Positions 6,805-61,170 of a DNA stretch of 64,000 nucleotides are shown here, piece after piece. The position numbers and the translations under genes were made by a program. Source of the DNA: Escherichia phage ukendt; sequence record NC_052661.1, one strand, 5' to 3'. The first letter of the stretch is position 1; each line of letters begins with the position of its first letter. The notes under the pieces were generated by a model. The model ran no database searches. It was not told the DNA's origin and was given only the letters and a program-made list of their open reading frames with translations.

Positions 6805-6879
6805 GGCCCTGTAGCTCAATGGGAGAGCTGTCGGCTCATAACCGATAGGTAGCTGGATCGAAACCAGCCAGGGCCACCA
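6805..6879 (+). tRNA. tRNA-Met (anticodon CAT; elongator vs initiator vs Ile-lysidine not resolved)
   Basis: Hand-folded cloverleaf: acceptor GGCCCTG/CAGGGCC, D-stem GCTC/GAGC, anticodon loop CTCATAA, T-arm GCTGG-ATCGAAA-CCAGC, encoded CCA. Confidence 0.75.
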
Positions 6880-6881
6880 AC

Positions 6882-6956
6882 GTCTTTATGGTGTAATGGA
6901 TAGCACAGGAGTCTTCTAAACTCTTAGTCAAGGTTCGATTCCTTGTAAAGACACCA
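6882..6956 (+). tRNA. tRNA-Arg (anticodon TCT)
   Basis: Acceptor GTCTTTA/TAAAGAC, anticodon loop CTTCTAA, T-arm CAAGG-TTCGATT-CCTTG, encoded CCA. Confidence 0.75.
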
Positions 6957-7028
6957 GAACATTTTAACATGAATTAGCTCAAGTGATTTGAACCCACTAC
7001 TGATCATGGTGGCAGAGAATGAGGTAAG

Positions 7029-7100
7029 TATGTCAGACATTATAAACAAAGGCCACGGTTATATTAGAAGACATAAATGCTCGAAGAGCACCGTTCGCTG
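7029..7100 (+). CDS. possible 23-codon micro-ORF between tRNA blocks
   Basis: ATG 7029 with GAGG 5 nt upstream; MSDIINKGHGYIRRHKCSKSTVR; may equally be untranslated spacer or RNA. Confidence 0.15.
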
Positions 7101-7152
7101 AGAACGGGGGTTGGTGGAGTCACCATTCATGGTAAAATGTTTTAAAAAACTA

Positions 7153-7182
7153 TTGACAACTAACACTATTTTATGTTAGATT
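7153..7182 (+). promoter_or_regulatory. sigma70-like promoter (TTGACA, 18 nt, TG-extended TAGATT)
   Basis: Exact -35 at 7153..7158; predicted start site a few nt before tRNA-Ser at 7191. Confidence 0.5.
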
Positions 7183-7190
7183 ATAAGCAT

Positions 7191-7281
7191 GGAAGGGCAA
7201 ATCGACGTGGCGACGAAAACGGTCTTGAAAACCGCCGAGCTTGAAAGAGCCTTGGGAGTTCGACTCTCCCTCCTTCCGCCA
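7191..7281 (+). tRNA. tRNA-Ser (anticodon TGA), type II
   Basis: Acceptor GGAAGGG/TCCTTCC, anticodon arm ACGGT-CTTGAAA-ACCGC, long variable arm, T-arm GGGAG-TTCGACT-CTCCC, G73, CCA. Confidence 0.7.
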
Positions 7282-7285
7282 GATT

Positions 7286-7371
7286 GGTAGATTGGTGAAA
7301 TGGTAGCCACGACAGTTTGCTAAACTGTAGTCGGAAACGGCGTGTAGGTTCGAGTCCTACATCTACCGCCA
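7286..7371 (+). tRNA. tRNA-Ser (anticodon GCT), type II
   Basis: Acceptor GGTAGAT/ATCTACC, anticodon arm ACAGT-TTGCTAA-ACTGT, long variable arm, T-arm GTAGG-TTCGAGT-CCTAC, G73, CCA. Confidence 0.75.
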
Positions 7372-7501
7372 AGTTCTTTTTAATGTAGCTTACTTTAGCA
7401 GAGTAAATCTTCGGCAAGTGGCGGTAACCACTTTACCGATACCTCATAGTTAGTGGTGTGAACACTGGCTATTTTAAAAAGAATTTAAATATTAGTATTT
7501 A

Positions 7502-7589
7502 GGTGAGTTAATTCCGTAGGGGTAGCGGGGCAGACTGTAAATCTGTTATCATTGCGATTCGGGTGGTTCGACTCCATCACTCACCACCA
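7502..7589 (+). tRNA. tRNA-Tyr (anticodon GTA), type II, with atypical 5' region
   Basis: Acceptor GGTGAGT/ACTCACC perfect, anticodon arm GCAGA-CTGTAAA-TCTGT, A73, CCA; junction between acceptor and D-arm is longer than canonical. Confidence 0.5.
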
Positions 7590-7595
7590 AATTAA

Positions 7596-7681
7596 GATGA
7601 GTTGGCTGAATGGTTTAAGCGGCGGACTGTTAATCCGTGTTCGAAAGAACAATATAGGTTCGAATCCTATACTCATCGCCA
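7596..7681 (+). tRNA. type II (long variable arm) tRNA with anticodon GTT; isotype ambiguous (Ser-like body, Asn anticodon)
   Basis: Acceptor GATGAGT/ACTCATC, D-stem GCT/AGC, anticodon arm GCGGA-CTGTTAA-TCCGT, variable-arm hairpin GTTC-GAAA-GAAC, T-arm ATAGG-TTCGAAT-CCTAT, G73, CCA. Confidence 0.55.
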
Positions 7682-7688
7682 GAATTAT

Positions 7689-7765
7689 GGACTTGTAGAG
7701 TTAAGGTAAACCCCCAGTCGCCAATAGGCTTCTGGAATTGCAGGTATCGAATCCTGCCGAGTCCC
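7689..7765 (+). pseudogene. tRNA-like remnant (acceptor and T-arm-like pairing, no canonical anticodon arm)
   Basis: GGACTTG...CGAGTCC acceptor-like pairing, T-like GCAGG-TATCGAAT-CCTGC with 8-nt loop, no encoded CCA, no 5-bp/7-nt anticodon arm found. Confidence 0.25.
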
Positions 7766-7771
7766 AGCATT

Positions 7772-7846
7772 GCTCCTATAGTATAATGGCTATTACAACG
7801 GTTTTGTAATCCGTGGATCTCTGTTCGATTCAGTGTGGGAGCACCA
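7772..7846 (+). tRNA. tRNA-Thr (anticodon TGT)
   Basis: Acceptor GCTCCTA/TGGGAGC with one G-U pair, anticodon loop TTTGTAA, T-loop TTCGATT, encoded CCA. Confidence 0.65.
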
Positions 7847-8118
7847 ACACAACATTAAGAGCACTGTGATTGATCGTCGTATCCTGTGCACAAGGTCTGC
7901 TCGAAAGACAGTGTTCTTAGTATTGTGTTGATCACAAAAAGAGTCACCCGAAACTTGACCGGAGTAGGGTTGGATGGGGCAAAATGAGAAGCGGCTCTCC
8001 CATCGACAGCAACGAAGAATAATATTTGACTTTGGTTTTGTATTATTTAAGTTAGCTTACCGAACGTAGGGCTAGTCACCCAACGGGATACTCGTCACTG
8101 TCCCAATCAATAAAAGTC

Positions 8119-8148
8119 TTGACAACAAATAGTAAAATGTAGTATAGT
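8119..8148 (+). promoter_or_regulatory. sigma70-like promoter (TTGACA, 18 nt, TG-extended TATAGT)
   Basis: Exact -35 at 8119..8124 and TATAGT at 8143..8148; predicted start just upstream of tRNA-Gly. Confidence 0.55.
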
Positions 8149-8159
8149 AAAGATATAGG

Positions 8160-8233
8160 GCGTTCTTGGTGTAGCGGTAGCATTCCGTCCTTCCAAGTCG
8201 GCGGCACGAGTTCGATCCTCGTAGAACGCTCCA
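8160..8233 (+). tRNA. tRNA-Gly (anticodon TCC)
   Basis: Acceptor GCGTTCT/AGAACGC, anticodon loop CTTCCAA, T-arm ACGAG-TTCGATC-CTCGT, encoded CCA. Confidence 0.7.
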
Positions 8234-8330
8234 AATTATTTAATAAAGGGTTGCCAGAAAACTTTCTCTTTTACTCATGGTTTTCTCCTTCTCTCACACT
8301 TCTTCTGGTTGCCCTTCATTAAATGATTTT

Positions 8331-8406
8331 TGGTTTGTAGTGTAGTCCGGTAGCACACGACACTTTGACTGTCGTAGGTTTGGTTCAAATCCAGACAGAC
8401 CAGCCA
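8331..8406 (+). tRNA. tRNA-Gln (anticodon TTG)
   Basis: U1-A72 pair and G73 as in enterobacterial tRNA-Gln; anticodon arm CGACA-CTTTGAC-TGTCG; T-loop TTCAAAT; CCA. Confidence 0.7.
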
Positions 8407-8411
8407 TATAA

Positions 8412-8488
8412 CGGAATTTAGCTCAGTTTGGTAGAGTGTACGCTTTGGGAGCGTATTGTCGCAGGTTCGAATCCTGCAATTCCGACCA
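8412..8488 (+). tRNA. tRNA-Pro (anticodon TGG)
   Basis: Acceptor CGGAATT/AATTCCG, anticodon arm TACGC-TTTGGGA-GCGTA, T-arm GCAGG-TTCGAAT-CCTGC, CCA. Confidence 0.8.
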
Positions 8489-8494
8489 ATTAAA

Positions 8495-8568
8495 TGTTTC
8501 GTAGTTCAATGGTAGAACCCACGACTGATAATCGTGAGACACAAGTTCGATTCTTGTCGAAACAACCA
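8495..8568 (+). tRNA. tRNA-Ile (anticodon GAT)
   Basis: Acceptor TGTTTCG/CGAAACA, D-arm GTTC-AATGGTA-GAAC, anticodon arm CACGA-CTGATAA-TCGTG, T-arm ACAAG-TTCGATT-CTTGT, CCA. Confidence 0.8.
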
Positions 8569-8570
8569 GT

Positions 8571-8643
8571 TTCCCGTTAGACTTACAGGATAAGAGTTCC
8601 ACAGCTTATTGTGATGCTGGTTCGAATCCAGCACGGGATACAT
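8571..8643 (+). pseudogene. tRNA-like remnant (good T-arm, degenerate anticodon arm, no CCA)
   Basis: T-arm GCTGG-TTCGAAT-CCAGC and 6/7 acceptor pairing (TTCCCGT/ACGGGAT); no acceptable anticodon stem-loop. Confidence 0.25.
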
Positions 8644-8646
8644 AAT

Positions 8647-8725
8647 AGCGGGATAGAGGAGTCTGGTCGTCCTCGCCAGTTTCATATGCTGGAGATCATT
8701 GGTTCAAATCCGATTCCCGCCTCCA
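8647..8725 (+). tRNA. second CAT-anticodon tRNA (Met/initiator/Ile-lysidine), with a 1-72 mismatch
   Basis: Anticodon arm CCAGT-TTCATAT-GCTGG, T-loop TTCAAAT, acceptor AGCGGGA/TCCCGCC with an A1-C72 mismatch, CCA. Confidence 0.6.
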
Positions 8726-49017: not shown

Positions 49018-49020
49018 GAA

Positions 49021-49048
49021 AAGGAGCCATTTGGCTCCTTTCTTTTAT
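49021..49048. terminator. bidirectional terminator between the convergent structural and replication modules
   Basis: AAGGAGCC-ATTT-GGCTCCTT hairpin flanked by an A-run upstream and T-run downstream. Confidence 0.7.
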
Positions 49049-49073: not shown

Positions 49074-49955
49074 TCAGAACGGAATATCATCGTCGAAGTC
49101 CATTGGAGGTTCTTCTTGATTACTTGGTTCTGGTTGTGGTTCAGGTTTCTTCTCTTCTTTCTTCTCTTCTTTCTTAGGTTGTTCTGCGGAACCACGGATG
49201 GCAGCAGCAACTTTATCAGACAGAGCCAGAACTTTACGAGCAGAGTCAATCAGATCTTCTACAGATACAGTCTTAATGGTATGGTCTTTACAAGCATTGA
49301 GAATAGCGTGACCAACAGATGCCCCAAGATCATAATCATTAATATCAACACCACGAGATTCAGCAACTTCCGATTTCAGCGTGACAGTTGCAGATTGAAC
49401 AACCCCAGCGATATCGAAAGCATCGCCTTTAACACCATTACGAATCAGTTCCAGTGCACCATTTACTGCGTGACCAGTTTCCAGACCTACAGTATCACGT
49501 TTTTTATAGGATTGCTTAGGAGCAGCATCGTTGGAACCCTTATTGCCAGAAGATTTGTTAGACTTCTGAACACCATCGGTAGACAATACTGTAATACGAG
49601 ATTTTTTAGTATTGTAGTAAGTTTTACCGCCTTTATTATCAACGCGATCAATATCAATACTTACTTCTACACCTTTTTCAATAGTGATCCAATTATCACC
49701 TTCTTTGACTTGCAGGTTTTCATAACCTTCTTTCAGTTCAATGTCACCAAGAGAAATCCAAACACCTTTCTCATCTGGTTTAGCACCTTTCTCTTTCAGA
49801 ACAAGAGAGGCTCGGTGAGTTGAAACAATCGTTTTTCCTTCCCAATGAAAAGTTTTAGGTTCAGCGAATTTATCCAGTTTAACGTAGTCTACGATACCAG
49901 TTGCATAAGTTACGGTTTTGCCTTTACGATCAGTTTCAGTATTAATTACGGACAT
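49074..49955 (-). CDS. ssb: single-stranded DNA-binding protein
   Basis: Gly/Pro/Glu-rich linker and C-terminus DFDDDIPF, identical in form to the acidic tail of bacterial SSB. Confidence 0.8.
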   Translation of the reverse strand: MSVINTETDRKGKTVTYATGIVDYVKLDKFAEPKTFHWEGKTIVSTHRASLVLKEKGAKPDEKGVWISLGDIELKEGYENLQVKEGDNWITIEKGVEVSIDIDRVDNKGGKTYYNTKKSRITVLSTDGVQKSNKSSGNKGSNDAAPKQSYKKRDTVGLETGHAVNGALELIRNGVKGDAFDIAGVVQSATVTLKSEVAESRGVDINDYDLGASVGHAILNACKDHTIKTVSVEDLIDSARKVLALSDKVAAAIRGSAEQPKKEEKKEEKKPEPQPEPSNQEEPPMDFDDDIPF

Positions 49956-49971
49956 TATTATCTCCTCTACA

Positions 49972-50364
49972 TTACATTAATTTTGCACAGAAAGAGCGGA
50001 GTCTTTCCATATCATCTTGCTCTAACAGGTATTTACCTTTACCTATTCCAACTCCAATTTCACCATTAGGAAAATGAACTATTTGCACTGGGAAACCTCC
50101 GAGTTTAATTGTGGCAGCTTTGCCTTCTTCGTCTATAACGTTTCGGATTGTATCTTGCAGTGAAATGAATTCTTTGTTTGTAACAGTGGTTTCAATTATT
50201 TCAGATGTTTCAACACGAGCGGTTAGCTTCTTGTCGCCACCTTGAATAACCAAAATTTGAAAATAAAAAGAGTTGTCAAGACCTACAACATTTTTCTCAA
50301 CTAGTGTTAAACTGGTATAATTTCCATAAACAGTTTCAACAGCTATCTTAGAACGTTCAGTCAT
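49972..50364 (-). CDS. hypothetical replication-module protein
   Basis: 130-aa ORF between SSB and the nucleotidyltransferase gene. Confidence 0.35.
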   Translation of the reverse strand: MTERSKIAVETVYGNYTSLTLVEKNVVGLDNSFYFQILVIQGGDKKLTARVETSEIIETTVTNKEFISLQDTIRNVIDEEGKAATIKLGGFPVQIVHFPNGEIGVGIGKGKYLLEQDDMERLRSFCAKLM

Positions 50365-50409
50365 TGAATGCTATCCTATCATAAAATGTTTAATATTGTC
50401 AAGCTTTAA

Positions 50410-51003
50410 TTACCAAGGAATATCATCTTCTTCCAATCTGGTATCTATTTGAGGTGGACGTGGAACCTTAACCTCTTTCACAAAACGAAGATATGGGAAA
50501 CGTGTAGCAATTTTAATAACATGTTTGGCATCTTCTCTAACATCTTTGTGCAAGAAGCAGATCCCTGTTTCCAAAGTTGTTTCAAAATCTTTAGAGTAAT
50601 AACAATCCTTTCCATCAAATGCAGCCTGGCAGATAGACAGATCAAACTCATTTAGAAAGGTTGTCATTACGCTTGGTTCCATAATCATAAGGTTGCAAAG
50701 CTGACCATCACGTTCAAACTCAAAAACGTGTTTAAGACCAGTAACACCCTCATAATTGTCAGAAGCCTCTTTGTTTCCTAGTTTACGAACATTAGTTCCC
50801 ATCAAAGCAGATGCAATCAATTCTTGTATTTGCTCTTCTGATCGATGTGCAGGAAGGGATGTGTAGAAATCCAGATCACGTCCAGCAATATCAAGAATAC
50901 GCCAATCACGAACAGCACCGCCAGCCAAGACAGAATTAGGATCAGCGATCTTTAATACGGTAAGAATCTCTTTGGCAATATTGATTTGTTTTGATTTAGT
51001 CAT
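50410..51003 (-). CDS. minimal nucleotidyltransferase (CCA-adding-enzyme head-like) with SSB-like acidic C-terminal tail
   Basis: LAGGAVRDWRILDIAGRDLDFY matches the GGxVRD...DxD signature of CCA-adding/poly(A) polymerase head domains; 197 aa; ends EEDDIPW. Confidence 0.55.
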   Translation of the reverse strand: MTKSKQINIAKEILTVLKIADPNSVLAGGAVRDWRILDIAGRDLDFYTSLPAHRSEEQIQELIASALMGTNVRKLGNKEASDNYEGVTGLKHVFEFERDGQLCNLMIMEPSVMTTFLNEFDLSICQAAFDGKDCYYSKDFETTLETGICFLHKDVREDAKHVIKIATRFPYLRFVKEVKVPRPPQIDTRLEEDDIPW

Positions 51004-51214
51004 TGATACGCTCCACAGTTACTTTTACAACATCGTCCATATTAATCTCATCCCCCAAGACCTCAATAACACCTTCCTCATAAAGTCGAGCACATTCTTC
51101 CCACACTTCAGCTTCCGTCATTCCACCTGCAATCTTATTTGCAAGACCTTTAATAACATCTTCATTTTGTTCATCAACAAGAATTGAAACATTAAAGCTC
51201 ACTAATTTACGCAT
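50996..51214 (-). CDS. hypothetical small acidic protein
   Basis: 72-aa ORF; start overlaps upstream gene. Confidence 0.3.
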   Translation of the reverse strand: MRKLVSFNVSILVDEQNEDVIKGLANKIAGGMTEAEVWEECARLYEEGVIEVLGDEINMDDVVKVTVERIND

Positions 51215-51631: not shown

Positions 51632-54600
51632 CTAGTGACAGGACGCCCAGGAGTTACCCACATCATATCCGGCAGTAAGCTGAACATTAAGATTGTAAAA
51701 TTCTCCAGCCTTAGTAACAGCTAAAGCAGCAAGTTCACCTGCCCGACTATAGGCTGTAAACCATCCACCTTTGGGAGATTCATGAATGTTAGCCCAAATT
51801 TGCCCTGTCTCTTTTTCCTTATTATGCTTCCATTCTTCAACTTTAGCAAGGCATTCTTTATCAATTTTCTTTTGTTCTTCAGGATCGTCTACTTTCTTCC
51901 AACCTAATGATTCAGGTGAAAACCATTTAAATTCTACAAGGTTACGAGAAACTTCAAGCTGGGCTTCATCGTGATATGCAATCATTTGTTGCACGAAGTC
52001 TTTATTCTTCCAGTCATCTTTAAAGAAGTCAACACTTAGCCCTTCTTCTTCGATCATGTCGTCATAAATAACCATTGCACGTTTAGCACAGATAACCCCA
52101 CCACTTTGGAACAGAGAGTTAAGAATCGCGTGAGCAGAACGAGTAGGAACCTTACGACCGTCAATACCCAAAACATACTGTTTACCAGTCTTAACCCAGA
52201 AATCGTTTAAACGTTCTTTAAGACGCGCCAGTGGGAATGCAGCTTCCCAGAAAGCATCGAACACCAGTTGCCCTGTGTATTTATCGCTACCAATTGTTTT
52301 AGCAACCTTGTCTGCTTGAGCGCCGTACGTGCAGTTACCTGTCAACGTGATAAAACCATTCTGACGCATAACAAAAGATTCATTCTTGGTTGAGATACAG
52401 AATACATCTGTTACTCGTGAAAAAGCTTTTGTCAACCTCTGTCCTGAAATAGTTTGTCCGTTATTGATTGCCAACGTTAACATGCCATCTTTTTGAACAG
52501 AACCATACGCAATATTACCTGTCATATTGATAGCCAAAGAAACAGCGTCGCTAATCTTACCTTTCTTTTGACGGATAACAAGACTGCCGTTTGGACGCTT
52601 ATGACCATCTGCCATCCAGAATGCCTCTAAGAATGCTTCCAACACAGCTTGACCTTGATTAGCAATTAATGTAGACCAGTCCACTTCGTGCTTATTTTGA
52701 CCCACTTCAACGCCACATTTAGTCAAAAATTCCCTAAACTGACTCTTATTAGGACGTAATGAATGCATCGTTCCAGATACATACTCGTCAAATGTGAAGA
52801 TATCTCCCACAGCCTCACGTGCTTCTTCTAAGAATTTTTTCTCATCTTGATCTACCGTGACTGTAATACCCATTACTTTATTTCTGGCTTTGCCAGACCA
52901 CTTATAGTAGCCATCCGAAAGAAGCCAGCCTAAGAAACGACCTTCTTCCACTGTTAGAGTAGACACCACACCAGATCGCCCTGCTGCAATTATGTTTGAC
53001 TCCGAGTTTAAATCCTCTGTAGATCTACGCTCCACTTGCATATACTTAACATTGTTACCATCTGATCGCATAGTTTTTCTCTGTGCGTTAATCCACATAT
53101 GATCGTTAGTAACTTCTACTTTGAACCACTTGTTACCGAGAGAGACAACTTCTGCATCGTTATAGTCCCACAGCTTAAGAATAGGGGTATATTCGTAAAG
53201 AGCGGTGTGAGTATTATAAGATAAAACTTCATCCCCTACAAAAAGATCTTTACGTTTCTTCCAACCCGTTCTTGTTAACACTTCCGTATTATCTACAGGT
53301 ACACAACCGTATTTAACGCTCTTAGCAGGACCACGTTCAAACTTACGTCCAATAATATCAGTAATATGTTTTGCCATCATAGTATGCACATCGTTTGGTT
53401 TTTCTAACAGAAGTGCATTACAGTAAGCATGATCAGGATTATCATATCTCCACGTATAATGCGACTCAATCTTCGCCTCTAATGAATCAAAGTCATAACC
53501 AATCTGGAAGTATTTAGGAACCTCTACACCAAACAGGTTACGCATTTGCCATCCAAACAAAGAGGTAACACGAGGAATATTGGCTACAGACCTATGCTTC
53601 ATACGAGAGGTTGCTGCATCGCATGTAGCCGCTGGCGTAGGTATACGTCCATCTGCACGAACTGCTGCCAAGAAACCTTTGTTGTATTCTTGATCTTCTT
53701 CGTCTTCTTCCCAATCAGCACCACCGCCTAAAATAGAGTTCCTACGATGCTTATACGTTAAGTATTCTACAATCTGCGTAGCATAAGGAAACTTCTCACC
53801 CAAAGCTTGCAGGTTAGGACAAATTTCTTTTTCCTGACCTTTGGTAAAACATGGGTTAGTCAATACTTTAAGACCGCGACCTTTACCTTTTGCTATACGC
53901 TCTTGAATCTTCCTTTCCAAGGTTTCGGGTGTGCACTCCAGATGATCACAACGATCCTGACAAAAATTAGAAGATAGAGTTTGCTCAACGTAAGCTCGAA
54001 TACCTTTCTGAAGTTCTTCCTCACTCTTTTTAATTTTGGTGCCAGATTTAAGCGTCAAGTCTTTATCTTTGTATTCAGACGGTACCCAACCTAATCCTAC
54101 AAGCCAGTTTTTAATATGGGTTGTATCGTTCAATGTTGCAGGGATGTTAGGATCACATAGAGGCTCATCTGCTGCAACTGGCAGTTTCCACTCTTTCCCC
54201 AACATAACTAACCACCAATCTCCATCCCTCTCTTCCAAATGACCATCATGTTTCTTAGCAAAATTGATCATATGGTTAGTTGGCTCTAAGTTCTTTTTAA
54301 TTTGCAACTTAGGTGGAATAAAAGCCTTAAGATAACCTTTTGTTGCTGGTTTAGGTGGCAAAATAGGCTCAACGAGTAAACGAAGACGCTCCATTTCTGC
54401 ATCCAAAAAAGCAAGGTTCTCTTCTGCTTGCTTCATGTTAAAAGCAAACCCACGGTGTTCCTGGCGTGTAATAATGTCTGCTACACGTTGTTCAAGTTCA
54501 AATGGACCTTCCCATTTATCATAATCACCCCACTCTTCCATAAGGTAATTATATACGCTCGTATTGGCTTTGTTGTCATAGATACAGTAATAAAGCATAT

Positions 54601-55201
54601 CAGCAGCAAAAGTCTTAAATCGATCTTCTTCTGGAATCTCTTTACGGAAATCTATTTTTACATCACCTCCTGCCTTTCGAGAAAGTGCTGCCAAGCTATG
54701 TCCTGATTTGCCCTCAATCTTTCGATCTGGGTTTAACACTTTACTCAAAATCAAGGAGTCAATAAGTTTTACCTTATTTTTGCCCCACGTATTATATTTA
54801 ACACTGTAATCTAAGCCATAAAACAGTTTTGTAGCCAACCAGTCATAGTTGATACCGTTGTGAGCCACAGCCATTTCAACCAGATATTCAGGCTTATCTT
54901 TAAAATAACCTTCATGATTAATAAAGTCTGGGAAATCTTTTAGTTGAAAATGTGTGTAATCTTGCGCCACATACTCTTTAAGAACATATGTGTATTTGCC
55001 ATCTGACTCTTCATAAGGACGCCCATCAAAGATGTATTTAGGGCCATCGTGGAAAGCTACTATTTCTCCTGTTTCATGGTTCTCTAAGACAATACAGTGC
55101 ATTTGAAATGTGTCTTTGAGACGATAAGGACTAGCTAAATAATCGATAGTGTCATTATTCAACAAGCCGTTTGCTTCAATATCCCATGTAAACTTACTCA
55201 C
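51632..55201 (-). CDS. family A DNA polymerase with 3'-5' exonuclease domain, interrupted by an intein
   Basis: N-terminal DIEANGL exonuclease motif; motif B reconstituted as RGPAKSVKYG-CTYGAQADKV after removing residues 633-956; motif C YHDE; GTG start overlaps the stop of the upstream methyltransferase. Confidence 0.85.
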   Translation of the reverse strand: MSKFTWDIEANGLLNNDTIDYLASPYRLKDTFQMHCIVLENHETGEIVAFHDGPKYIFDGRPYEESDGKYTYVLKEYVAQDYTHFQLKDFPDFINHEGYFKDKPEYLVEMAVAHNGINYDWLATKLFYGLDYSVKYNTWGKNKVKLIDSLILSKVLNPDRKIEGKSGHSLAALSRKAGGDVKIDFRKEIPEEDRFKTFAADMLYYCIYDNKANTSVYNYLMEEWGDYDKWEGPFELEQRVADIITRQEHRGFAFNMKQAEENLAFLDAEMERLRLLVEPILPPKPATKGYLKAFIPPKLQIKKNLEPTNHMINFAKKHDGHLEERDGDWWLVMLGKEWKLPVAADEPLCDPNIPATLNDTTHIKNWLVGLGWVPSEYKDKDLTLKSGTKIKKSEEELQKGIRAYVEQTLSSNFCQDRCDHLECTPETLERKIQERIAKGKGRGLKVLTNPCFTKGQEKEICPNLQALGEKFPYATQIVEYLTYKHRRNSILGGGADWEEDEEDQEYNKGFLAAVRADGRIPTPAATCDAATSRMKHRSVANIPRVTSLFGWQMRNLFGVEVPKYFQIGYDFDSLEAKIESHYTWRYDNPDHAYCNALLLEKPNDVHTMMAKHITDIIGRKFERGPAKSVKYGCVPVDNTEVLTRTGWKKRKDLFVGDEVLSYNTHTALYEYTPILKLWDYNDAEVVSLGNKWFKVEVTNDHMWINAQRKTMRSDGNNVKYMQVERRSTEDLNSESNIIAAGRSGVVSTLTVEEGRFLGWLLSDGYYKWSGKARNKVMGITVTVDQDEKKFLEEAREAVGDIFTFDEYVSGTMHSLRPNKSQFREFLTKCGVEVGQNKHEVDWSTLIANQGQAVLEAFLEAFWMADGHKRPNGSLVIRQKKGKISDAVSLAINMTGNIAYGSVQKDGMLTLAINNGQTISGQRLTKAFSRVTDVFCISTKNESFVMRQNGFITLTGNCTYGAQADKVAKTIGSDKYTGQLVFDAFWEAAFPLARLKERLNDFWVKTGKQYVLGIDGRKVPTRSAHAILNSLFQSGGVICAKRAMVIYDDMIEEEGLSVDFFKDDWKNKDFVQQMIAYHDEAQLEVSRNLVEFKWFSPESLGWKKVDDPEEQKKIDKECLAKVEEWKHNKEKETGQIWANIHESPKGGWFTAYSRAGELAALAVTKAGEFYNLNVQLTAGYDVGNSWASCH
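52334..53305 (-). mobile_element. intein (324 aa) with LAGLIDADG homing-endonuclease domain, inserted in polymerase motif B
   Basis: Starts CVPVDNTEVLTRTGW, T-x-x-H block (VTNDH), two LAGLIDADG-like motifs (LGWLLSDGY, LEAFWMADGH), ends FITLTGN followed by Cys. Confidence 0.8.
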
Positions 55202-55995
55202 TATTCCTCCTTTCTAATGTTCTCCAGAACCCACTGAAGTTCTTTTAAACTTAAACTTCTTACTCCCGCAGTTTTACTAGCTTCCGCTTTAAGTAACGGG
55301 TAAGCTTCAATGATACGCGTTTTAAGATCAGAAGTCAAGGCTTTTAAAAAATAGGTAGATGCTTCAGATAAAGAATCTTCTTCTGTTAGCACTTTACCTG
55401 CGCTTGCTCCGGCTCTCCTAACAGCTATGTCGTAGTCTTTGCTGTTACCTAATACGAACAGTCGATTCTCTCCTAAAACAACGGGAGAACGCTTCTGGCT
55501 GCGTTTAATCCATATTTGGAATACACAAGGAACATCCCAAGGTTCTCCATGAAGAATAAAAGATCCTTTGGGACACTCTTCTTCGTGAAGAAGATGCATA
55601 TAAGGATTTAGTTTGTGTGCAAAAAAGATTTTTTGAAATGTGCGAGGTAAGATAAAACAAATACCACCTTCGTTATCCAGCATTTCAGCACAATGGTTAA
55701 AGAACTTAATGGCAAGACTAGCGTTTTTTCCGAATGGAGGATTACCAACAAAAGCCGTTACACTACCAACAGACTCAACAGATTGAGCTAAAAAATCTGC
55801 CTCAATACAATCTTCAAACTTAGGGTCAATATCAAAAGAAGTTATGTTTTTAAAACAAGAAGAGAAAGCTCCTTCTCCCGCAGATGGTTCTACGTAGTTA
55901 GCTTCCTCTCCAAAAATTTCTTTGATCTTATCACATAAGAACCCCGCATAAGCGGGGTTAGTGTAATATTGATCAAGTGTGTTCAACTTGCTCAA
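55201..55995 (-). CDS. amino-methyltransferase (probable DNA N6-adenine or N4-cytosine methyltransferase)
   Basis: AdoMet-binding EPSAGEGAF precedes catalytic VGNPPFG (NPPF), the gamma-class motif order; 264 aa. Confidence 0.7.
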   Translation of the reverse strand: MSKLNTLDQYYTNPAYAGFLCDKIKEIFGEEANYVEPSAGEGAFSSCFKNITSFDIDPKFEDCIEADFLAQSVESVGSVTAFVGNPPFGKNASLAIKFFNHCAEMLDNEGGICFILPRTFQKIFFAHKLNPYMHLLHEEECPKGSFILHGEPWDVPCVFQIWIKRSQKRSPVVLGENRLFVLGNSKDYDIAVRRAGASAGKVLTEEDSLSEASTYFLKALTSDLKTRIIEAYPLLKAEASKTAGVRSLSLKELQWVLENIRKEE

Positions 55996-56514: not shown

Positions 56515-56530
56515 AAGGGCCGAAGCCCTT
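56515..56530 (-). terminator. terminator-like hairpin at the end of the primase-helicase gene
   Basis: AAGGGC-TTCG-GCCCTT on the minus strand overlapping the stop codon, followed by TTATTAAAAA. Confidence 0.45.
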
Positions 56531-58307
56531 AGTAGTTGCTATCCGTAGGTAAGTTAGCAGGGTTGTTAAAATACTGCTCTTTGTCGTGAAGAGTTGCAGT
56601 TCTAATGTCATAGTAAAACTGCCCTGCTGGACCAGTCTCCGAGAACTCACGGTTTTTTAGGATAAAGCAATGAGTTGTATTACGTTCTACAGGATCTTCA
56701 GCAGCCTTATCTCGTTCCAAAGCCAAGGTAATACCAGCACCTTTAGCCAAGAAACTACTACCCATTGCATCGTCCTCTGTTAAGTGCTCATTGCCACCAT
56801 TAGCTGACTTCTTAACGTGTGAGATGACGATAATAGTTATAGCATACTCTTTCATGATTCGCTTCAACCATGTTGCTAACTCTTCCTGGGCTTGAACATC
56901 CATACCAGAAAGCAAATCAGAATAAGGGTCGATAACAAGAATTGTTACTCCAAAATAGATGATCATCTCCAAAACTTTTTCTTTGATAGACTCCACATCT
57001 GCTCCACGATCATCACACACGTAAAAACGTGGTGATCCATCTTCTCTTTCGTAAAAATCTAGGATTTTTTCTTTATTCTCTTCCAAGATTTGAAATTTCT
57101 CTTCCGGTGTTTTCCTGTGTAGAGGAATGTGTAGGAAAGAGGATAACAGGTTACGAGAATACTTTTTATAAGTCGCTTCCAAGGACAGAATACCTAGGGT
57201 ATGTTCTGGGTGTGCAACAATAATATGTTTGGTGATCTCGTTCACCATCAAAGTTTTACCGATACTGGTCTTTGCCAGGATGACTGTAATCTCTTCCTCT
57301 ACTAAACCACCACCCAACATGTTTGCAGCAACACGCATAAAAGGAGGCAAGGTAATCATCTTGGATTCCAAGCATTCCAATGCAGCTTCATACAAGACAT
57401 TAGAAGCATAAACACCTGCTGGGGTGTATAGACGAGCACTCCAAAAAGCTTTTACGAAATCTTTTGCACGGCCTTCTTCCAGATACTGATTGGCATCCTT
57501 AAGATCCATCTGCATACGGTAGACTTTGTTACGAGGCAGCACCTTAACAATATTTTCAAATGCCTCGTTACCTGCTTTGTCGTTATCCATGCAAACAATA
57601 ATCTTCTTAAATTTTTCAAAGAAAGGATATTGTGCCTGAACTTGTTTATACATACTGGTTTCACCAGTTGTGCCACTTACTACGGCTGGAAGCTCATATT
57701 TACTGTCCAAGTTTTCAGATAGCATTTGATAAGCTGCCAGAGCATCGTGTTCACCACCTGTAATTACAACAGTATGAGAACGATCTGCAAAACGAATTTG
57801 TCCAAAAAGATCTACATCTTTACCTACTTGACCAATAGGTTTACTGAAATCTTTAGGATGAATACGACGCTTAAAACCAACCAATTCTTTACCGATGGTA
57901 GTTGGATATAAACAACTTTCTACTACCATCTGATCCCCTTCCTGACGGTATTCATAACGAACACCATAGAAAGATGAAACTTTTTCTTTAATGCCTCGAT
58001 AACCACGTGGGTTGGTTGATGTTTCTTGAACAATTTTACGATGAATCTGTTTATTAAATTCCGAACCCACAATCTCCTCCTCTTCTTCTAAAACTTCACC
58101 ATTTTCTCGTAACCATTCTACGCTAGGAATAGTGTATTCACACGCAAAGCACTTAGCACCTTTATGCTCTCCATTAGAATCTAATCCATAAACCATCAGG
58201 TTATTACGAGAGCGATCCTTGCCATTTTTCATGCAGCGCGGACAACCTGTATGTCCTTCCTTGCTAAGATCAACATCAAATCCATATTTAGTTATAATGT
58301 GCGACAC
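56529..58307 (-). CDS. bifunctional primase-helicase
   Basis: N-terminal Cys4 zinc ribbon (CPRC...CFAC), TOPRIM-like VVITGGEHDALAAYQ, helicase Walker A AKTSIGKT and Walker B ILVIDPYSD. Confidence 0.8.
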   Translation of the reverse strand: MSHIITKYGFDVDLSKEGHTGCPRCMKNGKDRSRNNLMVYGLDSNGEHKGAKCFACEYTIPSVEWLRENGEVLEEEEEIVGSEFNKQIHRKIVQETSTNPRGYRGIKEKVSSFYGVRYEYRQEGDQMVVESCLYPTTIGKELVGFKRRIHPKDFSKPIGQVGKDVDLFGQIRFADRSHTVVITGGEHDALAAYQMLSENLDSKYELPAVVSGTTGETSMYKQVQAQYPFFEKFKKIIVCMDNDKAGNEAFENIVKVLPRNKVYRMQMDLKDANQYLEEGRAKDFVKAFWSARLYTPAGVYASNVLYEAALECLESKMITLPPFMRVAANMLGGGLVEEEITVILAKTSIGKTLMVNEITKHIIVAHPEHTLGILSLEATYKKYSRNLLSSFLHIPLHRKTPEEKFQILEENKEKILDFYEREDGSPRFYVCDDRGADVESIKEKVLEMIIYFGVTILVIDPYSDLLSGMDVQAQEELATWLKRIMKEYAITIIVISHVKKSANGGNEHLTEDDAMGSSFLAKGAGITLALERDKAAEDPVERNTTHCFILKNREFSETGPAGQFYYDIRTATLHDKEQYFNNPANLPTDSNY

Positions 58308-58319
58308 TTTGTTCTCCTG

Positions 58320-58598
58320 TTAAAATGGTTCGTTAGTCTCCATCATATATTCTGCTTCTAGTTCTTCCATGTGCTTTCTAAATTGGAAAGCAATTTCTGC
58401 TACAGTTACATTTAAATCTTTTTCAAAAACTTCTGTAGATCCTTCATAAAAACGAATACCGTCAATTAAAAGCCCTCCGTGGTAATCCCAATCGCTTTCA
58501 CGAGAAAGTGGATTAGGTTCTTCATAATAGTAATCCACCTCCACGACCAAGGCTTTCCCGTTACGAGTGGTGTATTCAAAATCAAAAGTGTTAATCAT
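58320..58598 (-). CDS. hypothetical small protein with acidic-aromatic C-terminus
   Basis: 92 aa ending EAEYMMETNEPF. Confidence 0.35.
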   Translation of the reverse strand: MINTFDFEYTTRNGKALVVEVDYYYEEPNPLSRESDWDYHGGLLIDGIRFYEGSTEVFEKDLNVTVAEIAFQFRKHMEELEAEYMMETNEPF

Positions 58599-59542
58599 TA
58601 TAGCTCCTCAAATAAAAGTCTACGACGCTCATTCAACACATCAATGTGATAATGAGTCCTGACATACTTAGCTAATGCTAATCCTTTCTCCATGCAAACA
58701 TCGGGAGCACTTAATAAGTATTCCGTAATATCTTTCCACTCGGAAGGTGTTTCAGCAAAGAATAACAAATCTTTAAACTCTTGTGTATGATAATTCTCAC
58801 GAGGAGAGCAGATTAAAGGTAAACCCTTAGCACCTGCCTCAAGAATTTTAAGATTGCTTTTTGCATTATTAAACACGTTATCGATCAATGGTGCAAGACT
58901 GATTTGATGACCATCGTAAGATTCCATGTAGTTGGCATATGGTCTTACACCTTCATAAACACAAGTTGGTGCTACATTTTCCCTGATTAAAGACCATTCA
59001 CGACTACTTAAAACTTCAGAATCCCTACGAAAACCACATATTGTAAGATCTTTACCAAAATCGGGCAAGATAGCCAAATCTTGTTTATGTGTTTCACTTC
59101 CAGCCCAGACTAATGGAGTTTTGGAGTAGCGATCACGGGTCAACACAAATTGACCTTCATCGTAAGGAAGTCCATTAGGGATTATGTGCACATTATCATT
59201 GTATTGTGAAAGTTCAACTTGCAAGGCAGGTGTCGTAGTTGTAACAAGATCACTGTGCTCTAAAAACCATTTTAAATGTTCACGAATACCTGATTCAAAA
59301 ATACCTTCTAACATGTGTCCTTTTGGAATAACTAAAGAGTCATCCAAATCCATAACCATTTTAAAGCCCAGGTTTTTAAGGGCTAAAAAGCCCTCTTTAC
59401 CTTTTGTTGGCACTCCGTTAAAAACGAAAACGTTGTGTTTAGGTTGTGAAGAGAACTGCCTTGAGTAAGGCAGCACTACCCTATGGAAATCGCAGACACT
59501 ATAATTGATTCCGTTACGATTGTCAAGAATTATTTGTCCCAT
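58598..59542 (-). CDS. glycosyltransferase (GT-B-like), paralogue 1
   Basis: 314 aa; TPLVWAGSETH and KSNLKILEAGAKGLPLICS resemble the donor-binding C-terminal half of GT-B enzymes; paralogous to next gene. Confidence 0.55.
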   Translation of the reverse strand: MGQIILDNRNGINYSVCDFHRVVLPYSRQFSSQPKHNVFVFNGVPTKGKEGFLALKNLGFKMVMDLDDSLVIPKGHMLEGIFESGIREHLKWFLEHSDLVTTTTPALQVELSQYNDNVHIIPNGLPYDEGQFVLTRDRYSKTPLVWAGSETHKQDLAILPDFGKDLTICGFRRDSEVLSSREWSLIRENVAPTCVYEGVRPYANYMESYDGHQISLAPLIDNVFNNAKSNLKILEAGAKGLPLICSPRENYHTQEFKDLLFFAETPSEWKDITEYLLSAPDVCMEKGLALAKYVRTHYHIDVLNERRRLLFEEL

Positions 59543-59549
59543 ACTTCAC

Positions 59550-60497
59550 CTACAAACTTTCAATAACCTGGCGTCGCAATTCGTTTGCATCTGCCAGATT
59601 ATAATGTGTTCGAACATGTTCCGCTAAGAACAAGCCGCGATCTTCCCGATAGTTCGGATTGCGAAGAAGCTTAACAATTTCGTAATGCCATTCAGCTTTA
59701 TTCTCTGCGTAAGCAACAGCGCGAGCATCTACAGGGTTAAAATAAGGTAATACCTTAGAACAAACAATCGGAATACCTTTTGCCCCAGCTTCAAGGATTT
59801 TGAGATTACTTTTACAATTATTAAAATCATTGTCTACCAAAGGAGCTATAGCAATAGCATGACTTTCGTAAACACTCATGTAATTATCTAAATCTTTTAC
59901 AGCAGCTTTATATTTGGCGTTTGGTAAATTTCTACGGATCTTAATCCACTCTTGCCCTGTGATACTCTGCGATGCTTCATATCCTGCAATAGTAAGAAGT
60001 TCATCATCGAAAGTATTAGAGACTAGTCGTAAATCGGGTTCGTGACTAGCACCGCCAGCCCATACAACAGGGGTACCGGATGAACGATCATTTGACAAAG
60101 TGAATTGTCCGCTATCAAAAGGAAGTGCATTTCGGATCACAACAACATTCCTATTTAAGTGACGGATTTTATATGCCAAATATTCCGTAGTCACAATGAC
60201 CACATCGGCAAGCTTAACCATAGCTACAATAGCATGAGTGTTTGACTCATATAAACTTGCTAAATAATGTTCTGGATTAAGTTGGTAGAAATCATCTAAA
60301 TCTACAACAATCTTAACACCTTGACGTTTCAGGGACAGAACATATTCTGCCCCTTTAGAATGAATACGGTTAAACACGACAACATCTTTCTTAGGCTGAA
60401 AATTATTGTTGTTAAATGGTATAACAATACGATGATAATCACAACCACTGTGAGGTTTTGCATCAATTTTCAGTTTAGTCCATTTTTTATTTGACAT
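59550..60497 (-). CDS. glycosyltransferase (GT-B-like), paralogue 2 (start refined from track start 60536)
   Basis: TPVVWAGGASH and KSNLKILEAGAKGIPIVCS; internal ATG 60497 has an AGGAGG RBS and aligns with the paralogue N-terminus. Confidence 0.55.
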   Translation of the reverse strand: MSNKKWTKLKIDAKPHSGCDYHRIVIPFNNNNFQPKKDVVVFNRIHSKGAEYVLSLKRQGVKIVVDLDDFYQLNPEHYLASLYESNTHAIVAMVKLADVVIVTTEYLAYKIRHLNRNVVVIRNALPFDSGQFTLSNDRSSGTPVVWAGGASHEPDLRLVSNTFDDELLTIAGYEASQSITGQEWIKIRRNLPNAKYKAAVKDLDNYMSVYESHAIAIAPLVDNDFNNCKSNLKILEAGAKGIPIVCSKVLPYFNPVDARAVAYAENKAEWHYEIVKLLRNPNYREDRGLFLAEHVRTHYNLADANELRRQVIESL

Positions 60498-61170
60498 GTG
60501 CCAGTGCCTCCTCATAAGAAATTCGGATTTTCCCATTTTTAATATCTTCTAAAGACGCTTTATATTCTTCCCAGTTAATGCCAATAGCAGCTTCTTTCTC
60601 TTCTTTTGTCAGATTAGCAAAAGGCATAGGATTGTTTCCAAAAACATCGTCTGGGTGGATATAAGCCATGATACGAAGTGGACAAGGTATTGCCTGAATG
60701 CCCTGATTCAAACCAGCAGCTTTCAAACGGTGTACCCATTCAGCATCTTCAAAACCATAGCCGTGAGTGTAAGGGCGGAAATAACCCATCTTCTCAATAA
60801 CGGCACGAGAATACATTGCAAATTGACACATTGCAAGTTCCCAGAGAATAACTTCTCCTTTACTCCCAACAACTTTATCTTTGAAATACTCCGGCATACC
60901 AAAGAAATCCCATCCTCCAGAGACAGCTTGATCTACAAAATATGTTTCCCATCCCTCCATGATTGGGTAGCAATCGTCGTCAAAAATAAACCAATAATCA
61001 TAACCTTCTTCATAAAACTGGTGCATAAGTTCATTCCTGGCGTAAGCTACACCTTTACGATCTGGATCGTTGAATACTCGAAAATCTGCATGTGGATCTG
61101 TTACAAGGTAGTCTTTAAGTGGACGGACACCTACAGTGATAACACCCACTCCGATTTTAATATTTTCCAT
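60487..61170 (-). CDS. glycosyltransferase (GT-A-like, DxD motif)
   Basis: 227 aa; YDYWFIFDDDCYP acidic DxD-type motif. Confidence 0.5.
   Translation of the reverse strand: MENIKIGVGVITVGVRPLKDYLVTDPHADFRVFNDPDRKGVAYARNELMHQFYEEGYDYWFIFDDDCYPIMEGWETYFVDQAVSGGWDFFGMPEYFKDKVVGSKGEVILWELAMCQFAMYSRAVIEKMGYFRPYTHGYGFEDAEWVHRLKAAGLNQGIQAIPCPLRIMAYIHPDDVFGNNPMPFANLTKEEKEAAIGINWEEYKASLEDIKNGKIRISYEEALAHVK

Follow-up and report, generated by a model that had tools for sequence, protein, structure and literature searches.

The 64,000-nucleotide stretch of Escherichia phage ukendt analyzed here (NC_052661.1, hereafter the window) carries, on the minus strand at 50410..51003, the gene of a stand-alone nucleotidyltransferase (NTase) whose C-terminus resembles that of an SSB, a protein that binds single-stranded DNA. 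The coding sequence, given with its stop codon and taken from the open reading frame (ORF) list and its translation, starts with ATG and specifies an acidic protein of 197 aa (isoelectric point 5.2) that includes LAGGAVRDWRILDIAGRDLDFY and terminates in RLEEDDIPW. Its start codon overlaps the stop codon of an upstream 72-aa gene (50996..51214, minus; PHROG 25475), the junction reading ATGACTAA, with a GGAG 9 nt upstream of the NTase start; this overlap suggests translational coupling. The DNA of the whole window is 97-98% identical to that of phAPEC8-like Escherichia phages (genus Phapecoctavirus, subfamily Stephanstirmvirinae), and phAPEC8_ev052 encodes the same protein as the NTase (100% identity), labelled there 'putative tRNA nucleotidyl transferase / poly(A) polymerase'. 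Since RefSeq labels the protein 'nucleotidyltransferase' and it falls into PHROG 10174 (3e-63) and PHROG 1614, both labelled likewise, its identity as a nucleotidyltransferase was already known. An earlier note on this DNA had described it, without naming its strand, as a minimal CCA-adding-like enzyme bearing an acidic tail common to several replication proteins. Profile comparisons place it instead beside Gad2, an anti-Gabija protein of phages, and point to a recurrent mimic of the SSB tip at its C-terminus.

The folded core (aa 1-176; 50476..51003, minus) is predicted to consist of the head-domain fold of class II CCA enzymes and a short helical extension, and it ends near residue 176, so that the neck, body and tail domains of CCA enzymes (~400 aa in total) are absent. 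Catalytic motif A occupies aa 27-47 (AGGAVRDW…DLDFY; 50863..50925, minus) and contains the metal-binding aspartates D43 and D45, the GGxVRD element and the following DxD being read as LAGGAVRDW…RDLDF. The earlier note was right on these points, namely the GGAVRD…RDLDF signature, the polymerase-type head fold and the missing domains. Column statistics over 100 family members show that G28, G29, R32, D43 and D45 are invariant and that Q6, A10, A27, A30, D33, W34 and K164 reach 90% conservation or more, while Q104, F120, S123, C125, F140, H/Y161 and F169-P170 are specific to the family. The invariant DxD argues that the protein is a catalytically competent stand-alone enzyme with a predicted class II (CCA/poly(A)-polymerase-type) head fold.

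The earlier note had regarded the small size as a special feature, but about 200 aa is normal for this large phage family and a stand-alone protein of this kind, PDB 2la3, has been solved, so "minimal" describes no peculiarity of the NTase. A phmmer search run exhaustively over 1.84 billion cluster representatives returned 275 clusters at 50% identity (E<=1e-3), almost all of 175-235 aa. Foldseek comparison with viral models likewise found many head-only phage proteins of ~170-220 aa, from Vibrio, Ralstonia, Caulobacter, ICP1 (ORF223), Dickeya, Pectobacterium, Yersinia and Pseudomonas phages. In T7-like Pectobacterium phages, 'tRNA nucleotidyltransferases' encoded between helicase and polymerase have been reported, their role being stated as unknown (PMC7693777). 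The solved protein (S. pneumoniae NP_344798.1, 191 aa, 'CCA-adding enzyme head domain') is similar in size to the NTase but is bacterial, and sequence searches do not match it to the family. A direct sequence search of the NTase against the PDB gave noise only (PYL1 and similar), the models of toxin and defence NTases (MenT/AbiEii, MNT, CD-NTase) were not matched, and PADLOC returned no match, as expected of an anti-defence gene. We hold the structural and family assignment, predicted as it is, with high confidence.

The resemblance to CCA enzymes is confined to motif A, outside which no part of the NTase could be aligned to E. coli CCA or to the CCA enzymes of the PDB. A profile of 100 family members aligned with the latter over ~40 residues around this motif (E = 6e-4), and its HHalign match to E. 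coli CCA reached a probability of 26% over 27 columns, so that profile similarity to class II CCA enzymes is restricted to 27-40 residues. The Pfam PolyA_pol model (PF01743) scored the NTase at 15.4 bits (E = 0.024), below its cut-off of 23, and its relatives at 15-20 bits; an NCBIfam scan gave one CCA match of 12 bits. Li et al. are said to have assigned, in 2002, motif B (RRD) of CCA enzymes to ribose recognition and motif D (EDxxR) to base templating. At the equivalent of motif B (positions 118-121) no Arg is conserved among the 100 family members, and the NTase reads EFD; at the equivalent of motif D (positions 157-158) no Glu-Asp is conserved among the same members, and the NTase reads EDAKH. 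The register of both motifs is approximate, set by eye and by the HHalign comparison of Gad2 with CCA. Ten phage tRNA genes lie at 6805..8725 on the plus strand (Met, Arg, Ser, Asn, Thr, Gly, Gln, Pro, Ile, Met); all ten encode their 3'-CCA, and a cca gene is present in the host as well. Because PolyA_pol stays below threshold, the CCA match spans 27 columns, motifs B and D are unconserved, the body and tail domains are lacking and the tRNAs already encode CCA, we conclude from sequence that the NTase does not belong to the tRNA CCA-adding enzymes. Specificity for nucleotide and acceptor cannot be carried over to it from CCA enzymes.

Bacillus phage SPbetaL7 encodes Gad2, ~400 aa long, in which AlphaFold predicts an NTase domain; deletion of gad2 makes SPbetaL7 sensitive to Gabija, and a co-expressed Brevibacillus homologue blocks Gabija (bioRxiv 10.1101/2023.05.01.538930). 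Its mechanism is still listed as unresolved in a 2026 review (PMC12904381). Precomputed matches to the Pfam family PF26128 'Gad2' were found on several relatives of the NTase: P0009, which is 61% identical to it, and P0163-P0168, with a weak match on P0093 and faint ones on P0016 and P0122. In HHalign, the family profile matched the verified Brevibacillus Gad2 from the supplement of that paper at 94% (E = 1.5e-7, 124 columns) and an alignment of nine Gad2 homologues at 97.7% (E = 1.8e-12, 125 columns), covering practically the whole head domain, whereas Gad2 against CCA reached 0.7%. Gad2 and the NTase family have the signatures AGG, DxD-[FY], Q-x-[IM] and F-D-x-[ST]-x-C in common, the last standing where CCA enzymes carry RRDFTINA. 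Both are nearly confined to phages and prophages, and the published list of Gad2 homologues extends to short proteins (214-281 aa) and to enterobacterial phages of the rV5-like kind. Judged by these profiles, the NTase family is closer to the NTase domain of Gad2 than to a true CCA enzyme. Of the earlier description as CCA-adding-like, motif A and the head fold stand, while the closer kinship is with Gad2 (97.7% over 125 columns, against 26% over 27 for CCA) and motifs B and D are unconserved.

The C-terminus of the NTase consists of a variable linker predicted to be disordered (aa 177-192; 50428..50475, minus) and the tip DDIPW (aa 193-197; 50413..50427, minus), a putative SSB-tip mimic. The predicted local distance difference test score (pLDDT) drops to 59 in the second-last block of 10 residues and to 49 in the last. 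Among ten NTase homologues of 59-99% identity, linker length and sequence differ, and yet the last five residues read DDIPW in nine and DSFPW in one; a fixed tip behind a variable linker is the pattern expected, on sequence grounds, of a short linear docking motif on a disordered tether. At four of five residues DDIPW agrees with DDIPF, the tip of E. coli SSB, and the ending E-E-D-D-I-P-W-stop has the composition of the SSB C-terminal tip (SSB-Ct), that is, a terminal aromatic after Pro, a hydrophobic and acidic residues, as in D-D-D-I-P-F of E. coli SSB.

SSB is a tetramer with four such tips. The phage itself encodes a 293-aa SSB-like protein (49074..49955, minus), made up of an OB-fold N-domain, a helical domain and a disordered acidic tail, and ending in PPMDFDDDIPF. 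This protein has the make-up of a bacterial-type SSB, an OB-fold domain that binds single-stranded DNA followed by a disordered tail ending in SSB-Ct. Its last 12 residues, EPPMDFDDDIPF (49077..49112, minus), are identical to the C-terminus of E. coli SSB in phmmer alignments with PDB 1eqq/4mz9 and 7f2n. P292 and F293 are invariant in its homologues, and ~85 of 103 end in [DE]x[DE][IVLC]PF. The tip of SSB docks many partner proteins, and free SSB-Ct peptides competitively inhibit the interactions of SSB with its partners (PMC5872125). The tips of E. coli SSB and of the phage SSB-like protein and that of the NTase are alike in being terminal, in combining acidic residues with Ile-Pro and an aromatic with a free carboxylate, and in following a disordered linker; they differ in that SSB-Ct sits on an OB-fold single-stranded DNA binder, while the NTase tip sits on an enzyme and has Trp in place of Phe.

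In some homologues the SSB tip is not terminal. The SSB-like protein of Escherichia phage muut (locus L001, 7026..7973) has its DFDDDIPF inside the chain, with 17 more residues behind it (…APIGLQYGRNFLHCF); NFLHCF or NFIHCI ends at least four homologues, and ELLYAM or LLHAMP ends others. In some lineages the tip is thus masked by an extension, which may be genuine variation or the product of a frameshift or read-through.

Given the amino-acid composition of the phage, chance should place DDIP[FW] at the C-terminus of a protein with a frequency of 5e-7, and the probability of at least two among 290 proteins is 1e-8; in the entire phAPEC8_ev052 proteome the pentapeptide DDIP[FW] occurs only twice, in either case as the last five residues. 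The NTase and the SSB-like protein have their ending in common far beyond chance. The only other P[FWY] C-terminus in the phAPEC8_ev052 genome belongs to an ORF of 74 aa (LR597654.1, 126012..126236) that adjoins the anaerobic ribonucleotide reductase activase; it ends in …GGDELQRLPF and is probably unrelated.

Tips of this type recur across the NTase family. Seven of 147 distant representatives end in IP[FWY] (NFPDDIPW, SSNDIPW, YPDDGIPF, WNDTIPF, EPYIPF, EKPIPF, VESIPY), an enrichment with a binomial P of 3.5e-13 against the internal tripeptide frequency of the family, and further acidic-aromatic tips are found among these representatives (PWDEEF, PWEDLF, DFSDEW, FSDDDF, ESWETPF). In a neighbour-joining tree built from core columns only, tailed members occupy at least seven separate places; the tree is weakly resolved with long branches, and it shows that tailed members do not form one tight clade, giving no count of independent gains. 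As far as the sequences tell, the association of the tip with this enzyme is recurrent, by repeated gain or repeated loss. We consider it probable that the NTase tail is a functional docking tail. In the literature we found no description of an SSB-tip mimic on this NTase family, of its recurrence, or of the phAPEC8-like 'tRNA nucleotidyltransferase' being placed on the Gad2 side. Literature searches on phAPEC8 NTases and on 2la3 likewise brought up nothing relevant.

Gad2 homologues often have aromatic or acidic ends themselves, such as …ETLKPIF, …KAVPIF, …EAPYPWF, …ELDEDGWPLAA and …STDEEVFE among ~20 sampled (Supplementary Table 10, bioRxiv 10.1101/2023.05.01.538930), a hint that members of the Gad2 superfamily may more generally carry docking tails at the C-terminus. 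The canonical SSB-type tip DDIP[FW] was not seen among these ~20. Gad1, likewise an anti-Gabija protein but unrelated to Gad2, has metagenomic homologues some of which carry an internal EIDDDIPFEHK or IDDDVPFEHK, a segment identical to the SSB tip (Supplementary Table 9, bioRxiv 10.1101/2023.05.01.538930). This internal segment is lineage-specific; we considered the DDD[IV]PF of some Gad1 homologues as an independent link between the SSB motif and Gabija inhibition and rejected it, the motif being absent from phi3T Gad1.

The NTase gene belongs to a leftward string of replication genes in the order 92-aa gene, primase-helicase, 143-aa gene, methyltransferase-like gene, family A DNA polymerase, three small genes, NTase, 130-aa gene and 293-aa SSB-like gene. 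The 92-aa protein (58320..58598, minus; PHROG 4240) ends in ETNEPF; its terminal Phe is kept in three genera or lineages (NEPF/NESF/NASF), and its tail is barely acidic. The primase-helicase is T7 gp4-like (56529..58307, minus; NCBIfam DnaB-type matches), and its terminal Tyr is kept across the subfamily (DSNY/AGSY/EGSY). The family A DNA polymerase (51632..55201, minus; Pfam DNA_pol_A) contains an intein-like insertion: it measures 1189 aa against 865 aa in phAPEC8_ev052, owing to a single insertion of 324 aa (52334..53305, minus; aa 633-956) that begins with Cys (CVPVD…) and ends in …TLTGN followed by Cys, an intein signature, between flanks of 98-99.6% identity. Adjoining the polymerase gene, with overlapping start and stop codons, is that of a 264-aa methyltransferase-like protein (55201..55995, minus) with a weak Eco57I match and hits to PHROG 5172 and 799; since it is labelled 'DarB-like anti-restriction' in phAPEC8_ev052, it is a candidate anti-defence gene inside the replication string. 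Next to the module lie two adjacent paralogues of ~320 aa (58598..59542 and 59550..60536, minus) with the common motif …NLKILEAGAKG[LI]P…, the muut homologue of which is annotated as a glycosyltransferase. Between the NTase and SSB-like genes, a 130-aa protein (49972..50364, minus; PHROG 16560) is encoded, which also follows the NTase in the Justusliebigvirus phages muut and FKP3 and in the metagenomic locus L011. A sigma-70-like promoter match (50373..50402, minus; TTGACA, an 18-nt spacer and a TG-extended TAGGAT) falls within the 45 nt that separate the stop codon of the NTase from the 130-aa gene; it may be due to chance, such matches being no more numerous in the region than in shuffled controls. 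A bidirectional terminator-like hairpin (49019..49042, both strands; stem of 9-10 bp and a T-run on either strand in a terminator scan) closes the string after the SSB-like gene.

The primase/helicase - polymerase - NTase synteny is found in the window, L001, L002 and L011. The NTase gene adjoins that of the DNA polymerase at these four loci and in Pectobacterium phage PP47, whose NTase is a more distant relative (84% by HHalign), and it adjoins a DNA ligase gene in the metagenomic phage contig L012. The genomic contexts of two tailed members, P0160 and P0122, were uninformative. In L012, the tailed NTase P0093 has 305 aa with an N-terminal extension and directly follows the ATP-dependent DNA ligase, and the same contig encodes (413..1486) a PHROG-107 exonuclease with a strongly acidic-aromatic tail, …NEDDSDALDDFDDF. 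This protein, which ends in DDFDDF, had been taken for the SSB of that phage, with the NTase copying the bacterial rather than the phage tip; that proposal was withdrawn, as the protein is an exonuclease.

Two features of the NTase thus have to be accounted for, its kinship with Gad2 and its SSB-type tip, and the reading that we prefer joins them: a Gad2-like NTase that would dock through the tip and act on a DNA- or defence-related substrate. We put the chance that this composite holds as a whole at about even; an anti-defence role, which rests on the analogy with Gad2, is conceivable but appears doubtful. Several observations weigh against this composite. Gad2 is ~400 aa long, with a C-terminal domain absent from the 197-aa NTase, and it lacks the invariant R32-D33-W34 of the family; identity between the two is ~19%, pairwise BLASTP is not significant, and the homology is remote. 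Because of this remoteness and of the missing R-D-W, function may not transfer from Gad2, and with the extra C-terminal domain these are the reasons why we call the NTase Gad2-like and not a Gad2 orthologue. We found no direct tie to Gabija in E. coli. The position of the third catalytic carboxylate, E95, is Glu in only 56% of the family. As for the tail, the Justusliebigvirus NTases, encoded in the same gene order, end in NNEEFKI or DDAWDDDKI with no SSB-like tip, and neither a Vibrio phage NTase nor the PP47 NTase has such a tail; since the sister genus and many family members go without it, the tail would be accessory and not essential to the enzyme. Nor does the NTase tail co-vary with the SSB tip of the same phage, the SSB-like protein of Justusliebigvirus keeping DFDDDIPF while its NTase ends otherwise. 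The tip ends in Trp and not Phe, a residue that may not fit SSB-tip pockets, and some family members are found among early genes rather than in replication modules.

Among the alternatives, the one closest to the existing annotation is a minimal CCA-, CC- or A-adding enzyme or poly(A) polymerase that repairs the 3' ends of phage or host tRNAs damaged by host nucleases or toxins. We judge it improbable: motif A and the head fold apart, the body and tail domains are missing, the Arg-Arg of motif B and the Glu-Asp of motif D are unconserved, PolyA_pol is sub-threshold, and E. coli CCA is matched over 27 columns only, against 125 for Gad2; moreover, the phage tRNAs of the window encode CCA, the host has cca, the protein is acidic (pI 5.2), and an SSB-type tail would be of no obvious use in tRNA repair. 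A replisome role has somewhat more in its favor. The T7 replication proteins gp2.5 and gp4 dock via acidic-aromatic C-terminal tails. The earlier note had invoked them as the model for a tail common to several replication proteins, and its readings of the three ends (EEDDIPW, DFDDDIPF and ETNEPF at 58320..58598) are all borne out by the translations. The SSB-like protein, the helicase, the 92-aa protein and the NTase would then all dock on the phage family A polymerase, and the NTase would be a replisome subunit. The replication module is indeed T7-like (gp4-type primase-helicase, family A polymerase), in four related loci the polymerase gene is immediately followed by the NTase gene and in T7-like PP47 it is directly preceded by it, the terminal aromatics of the helicase and the 92-aa protein are conserved, and the PP47 SSB and helicase bear classic acidic-aromatic tails (…GDDGDF, …DESDDY). 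The concept, acidic-aromatic C-terminal docking on a common partner, is the same, but the motif is not: only the NTase and the SSB-like protein strictly have the ending in common, the tails of the helicase and the 92-aa protein being hardly acidic, and the NTase tip, of the IP[FW] type, copies the host E. coli SSB tip (DDIP-F/W), carried exactly by the neighboring protein, rather than a T7-style acid run ending in Phe. No T7-type tail was found on the small NTase of PP47, the NTases of Justusliebigvirus and PP47 are tailless despite the same gene order, and tailed members also occur outside polymerase neighborhoods. The notion of a common tail consequently survives for two proteins and not for several, and we regard the polymerase-docked subunit as rather unlikely.

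Two further explanations give the tail no part in addressing the enzyme, and both strike us as very unlikely. As a decoy, it would compete with host or phage SSB for SSB-interacting proteins, for example by blocking host nucleases or helicases, with the NTase activity secondary or unrelated; the tip is near-identical to that of SSB, and free SSB-Ct peptides are competitive inhibitors (PMC5872125). The catalytic residues are nevertheless invariant across the family, tailed members included, and the phage already encodes an abundant protein with the exact tip. A monomeric, single-tailed protein would also be a poor competitor against the tetrameric, four-tailed SSB. Alternatively, the tail could be neutral, coincidental or there for another purpose such as stability, without docking anything. 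The motif is only five residues long, and the sister genus as well as most of the family do without it; on the other hand, the tip is kept behind a variable linker down to 59% identity, and both the family enrichment (P=3.5e-13) and the genome-wide coincidence (P=1e-8) speak against this.

Returning to the docked Gad2-like enzyme, its mode of action might be as follows. The terminal aromatic with its free carboxylate, together with Pro, Ile and the acidic residues, would most likely plug into an SSB-tip pocket, which might, speculatively, belong to a host protein that interacts with SSB, to a defence component or to a phage replisome protein. Such docking would concentrate the NTase at SSB-organized sites, that is, at forks, gaps and DNA ends, where it may transfer nucleotides to a DNA- or defence-related substrate, be it a DNA end, a protein or a nucleotide. 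The activity would most plausibly be counter-defence or DNA-end-modifying, as suspected for Gad2. In a more specific version, which we think has only a small chance of being correct, a Gad2-family NTase would use SSB-tip mimicry as an address label and then nucleotidylylate the docked protein or the guarded DNA end. The dock would in that case be a genome-maintenance protein of the host that interacts with SSB, or else a nuclease or helicase of a defence system that is itself organized around SSB or DNA ends, such as Gabija, a proposal that is equally tentative.

The NTase gene, its nature as a nucleotidyltransferase, the head-only family and the Gad2 family were all known before, and Pfam PF26128 already touches some members faintly. 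What appears new, from the sequence comparisons presented here, is the conserved and recurrent SSB-tip mimic on this NTase family and the reassignment of the phAPEC8-like 'tRNA nucleotidyltransferase' to the Gad2 side. Small 'tRNA nucleotidyltransferase' genes are dispersed over many phage genomes, and Gad2 is the one experimentally validated relative identified here; that a whole branch of the family is Gad2-like rather than CCA-like speaks for the re-annotation of many phage genes. The SSB-tip copy, appended in several lineages, provides a concrete and cheap handle on what DDIPW binds. If the partner is the phage polymerase, the NTase would be a new accessory enzyme of the replisome. If it is a host SSB-interacting or defence protein, a phage enzyme would be addressed to its site by mimicry of a short motif of a host hub, and the substrate search for Gad2-type enzymes would be narrowed. 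Were the tip truly to serve as an address label, this would amount to enzymatic anti-defence via a hijacked host hub motif, and would offer a clue to the mechanism of Gad2-type proteins.

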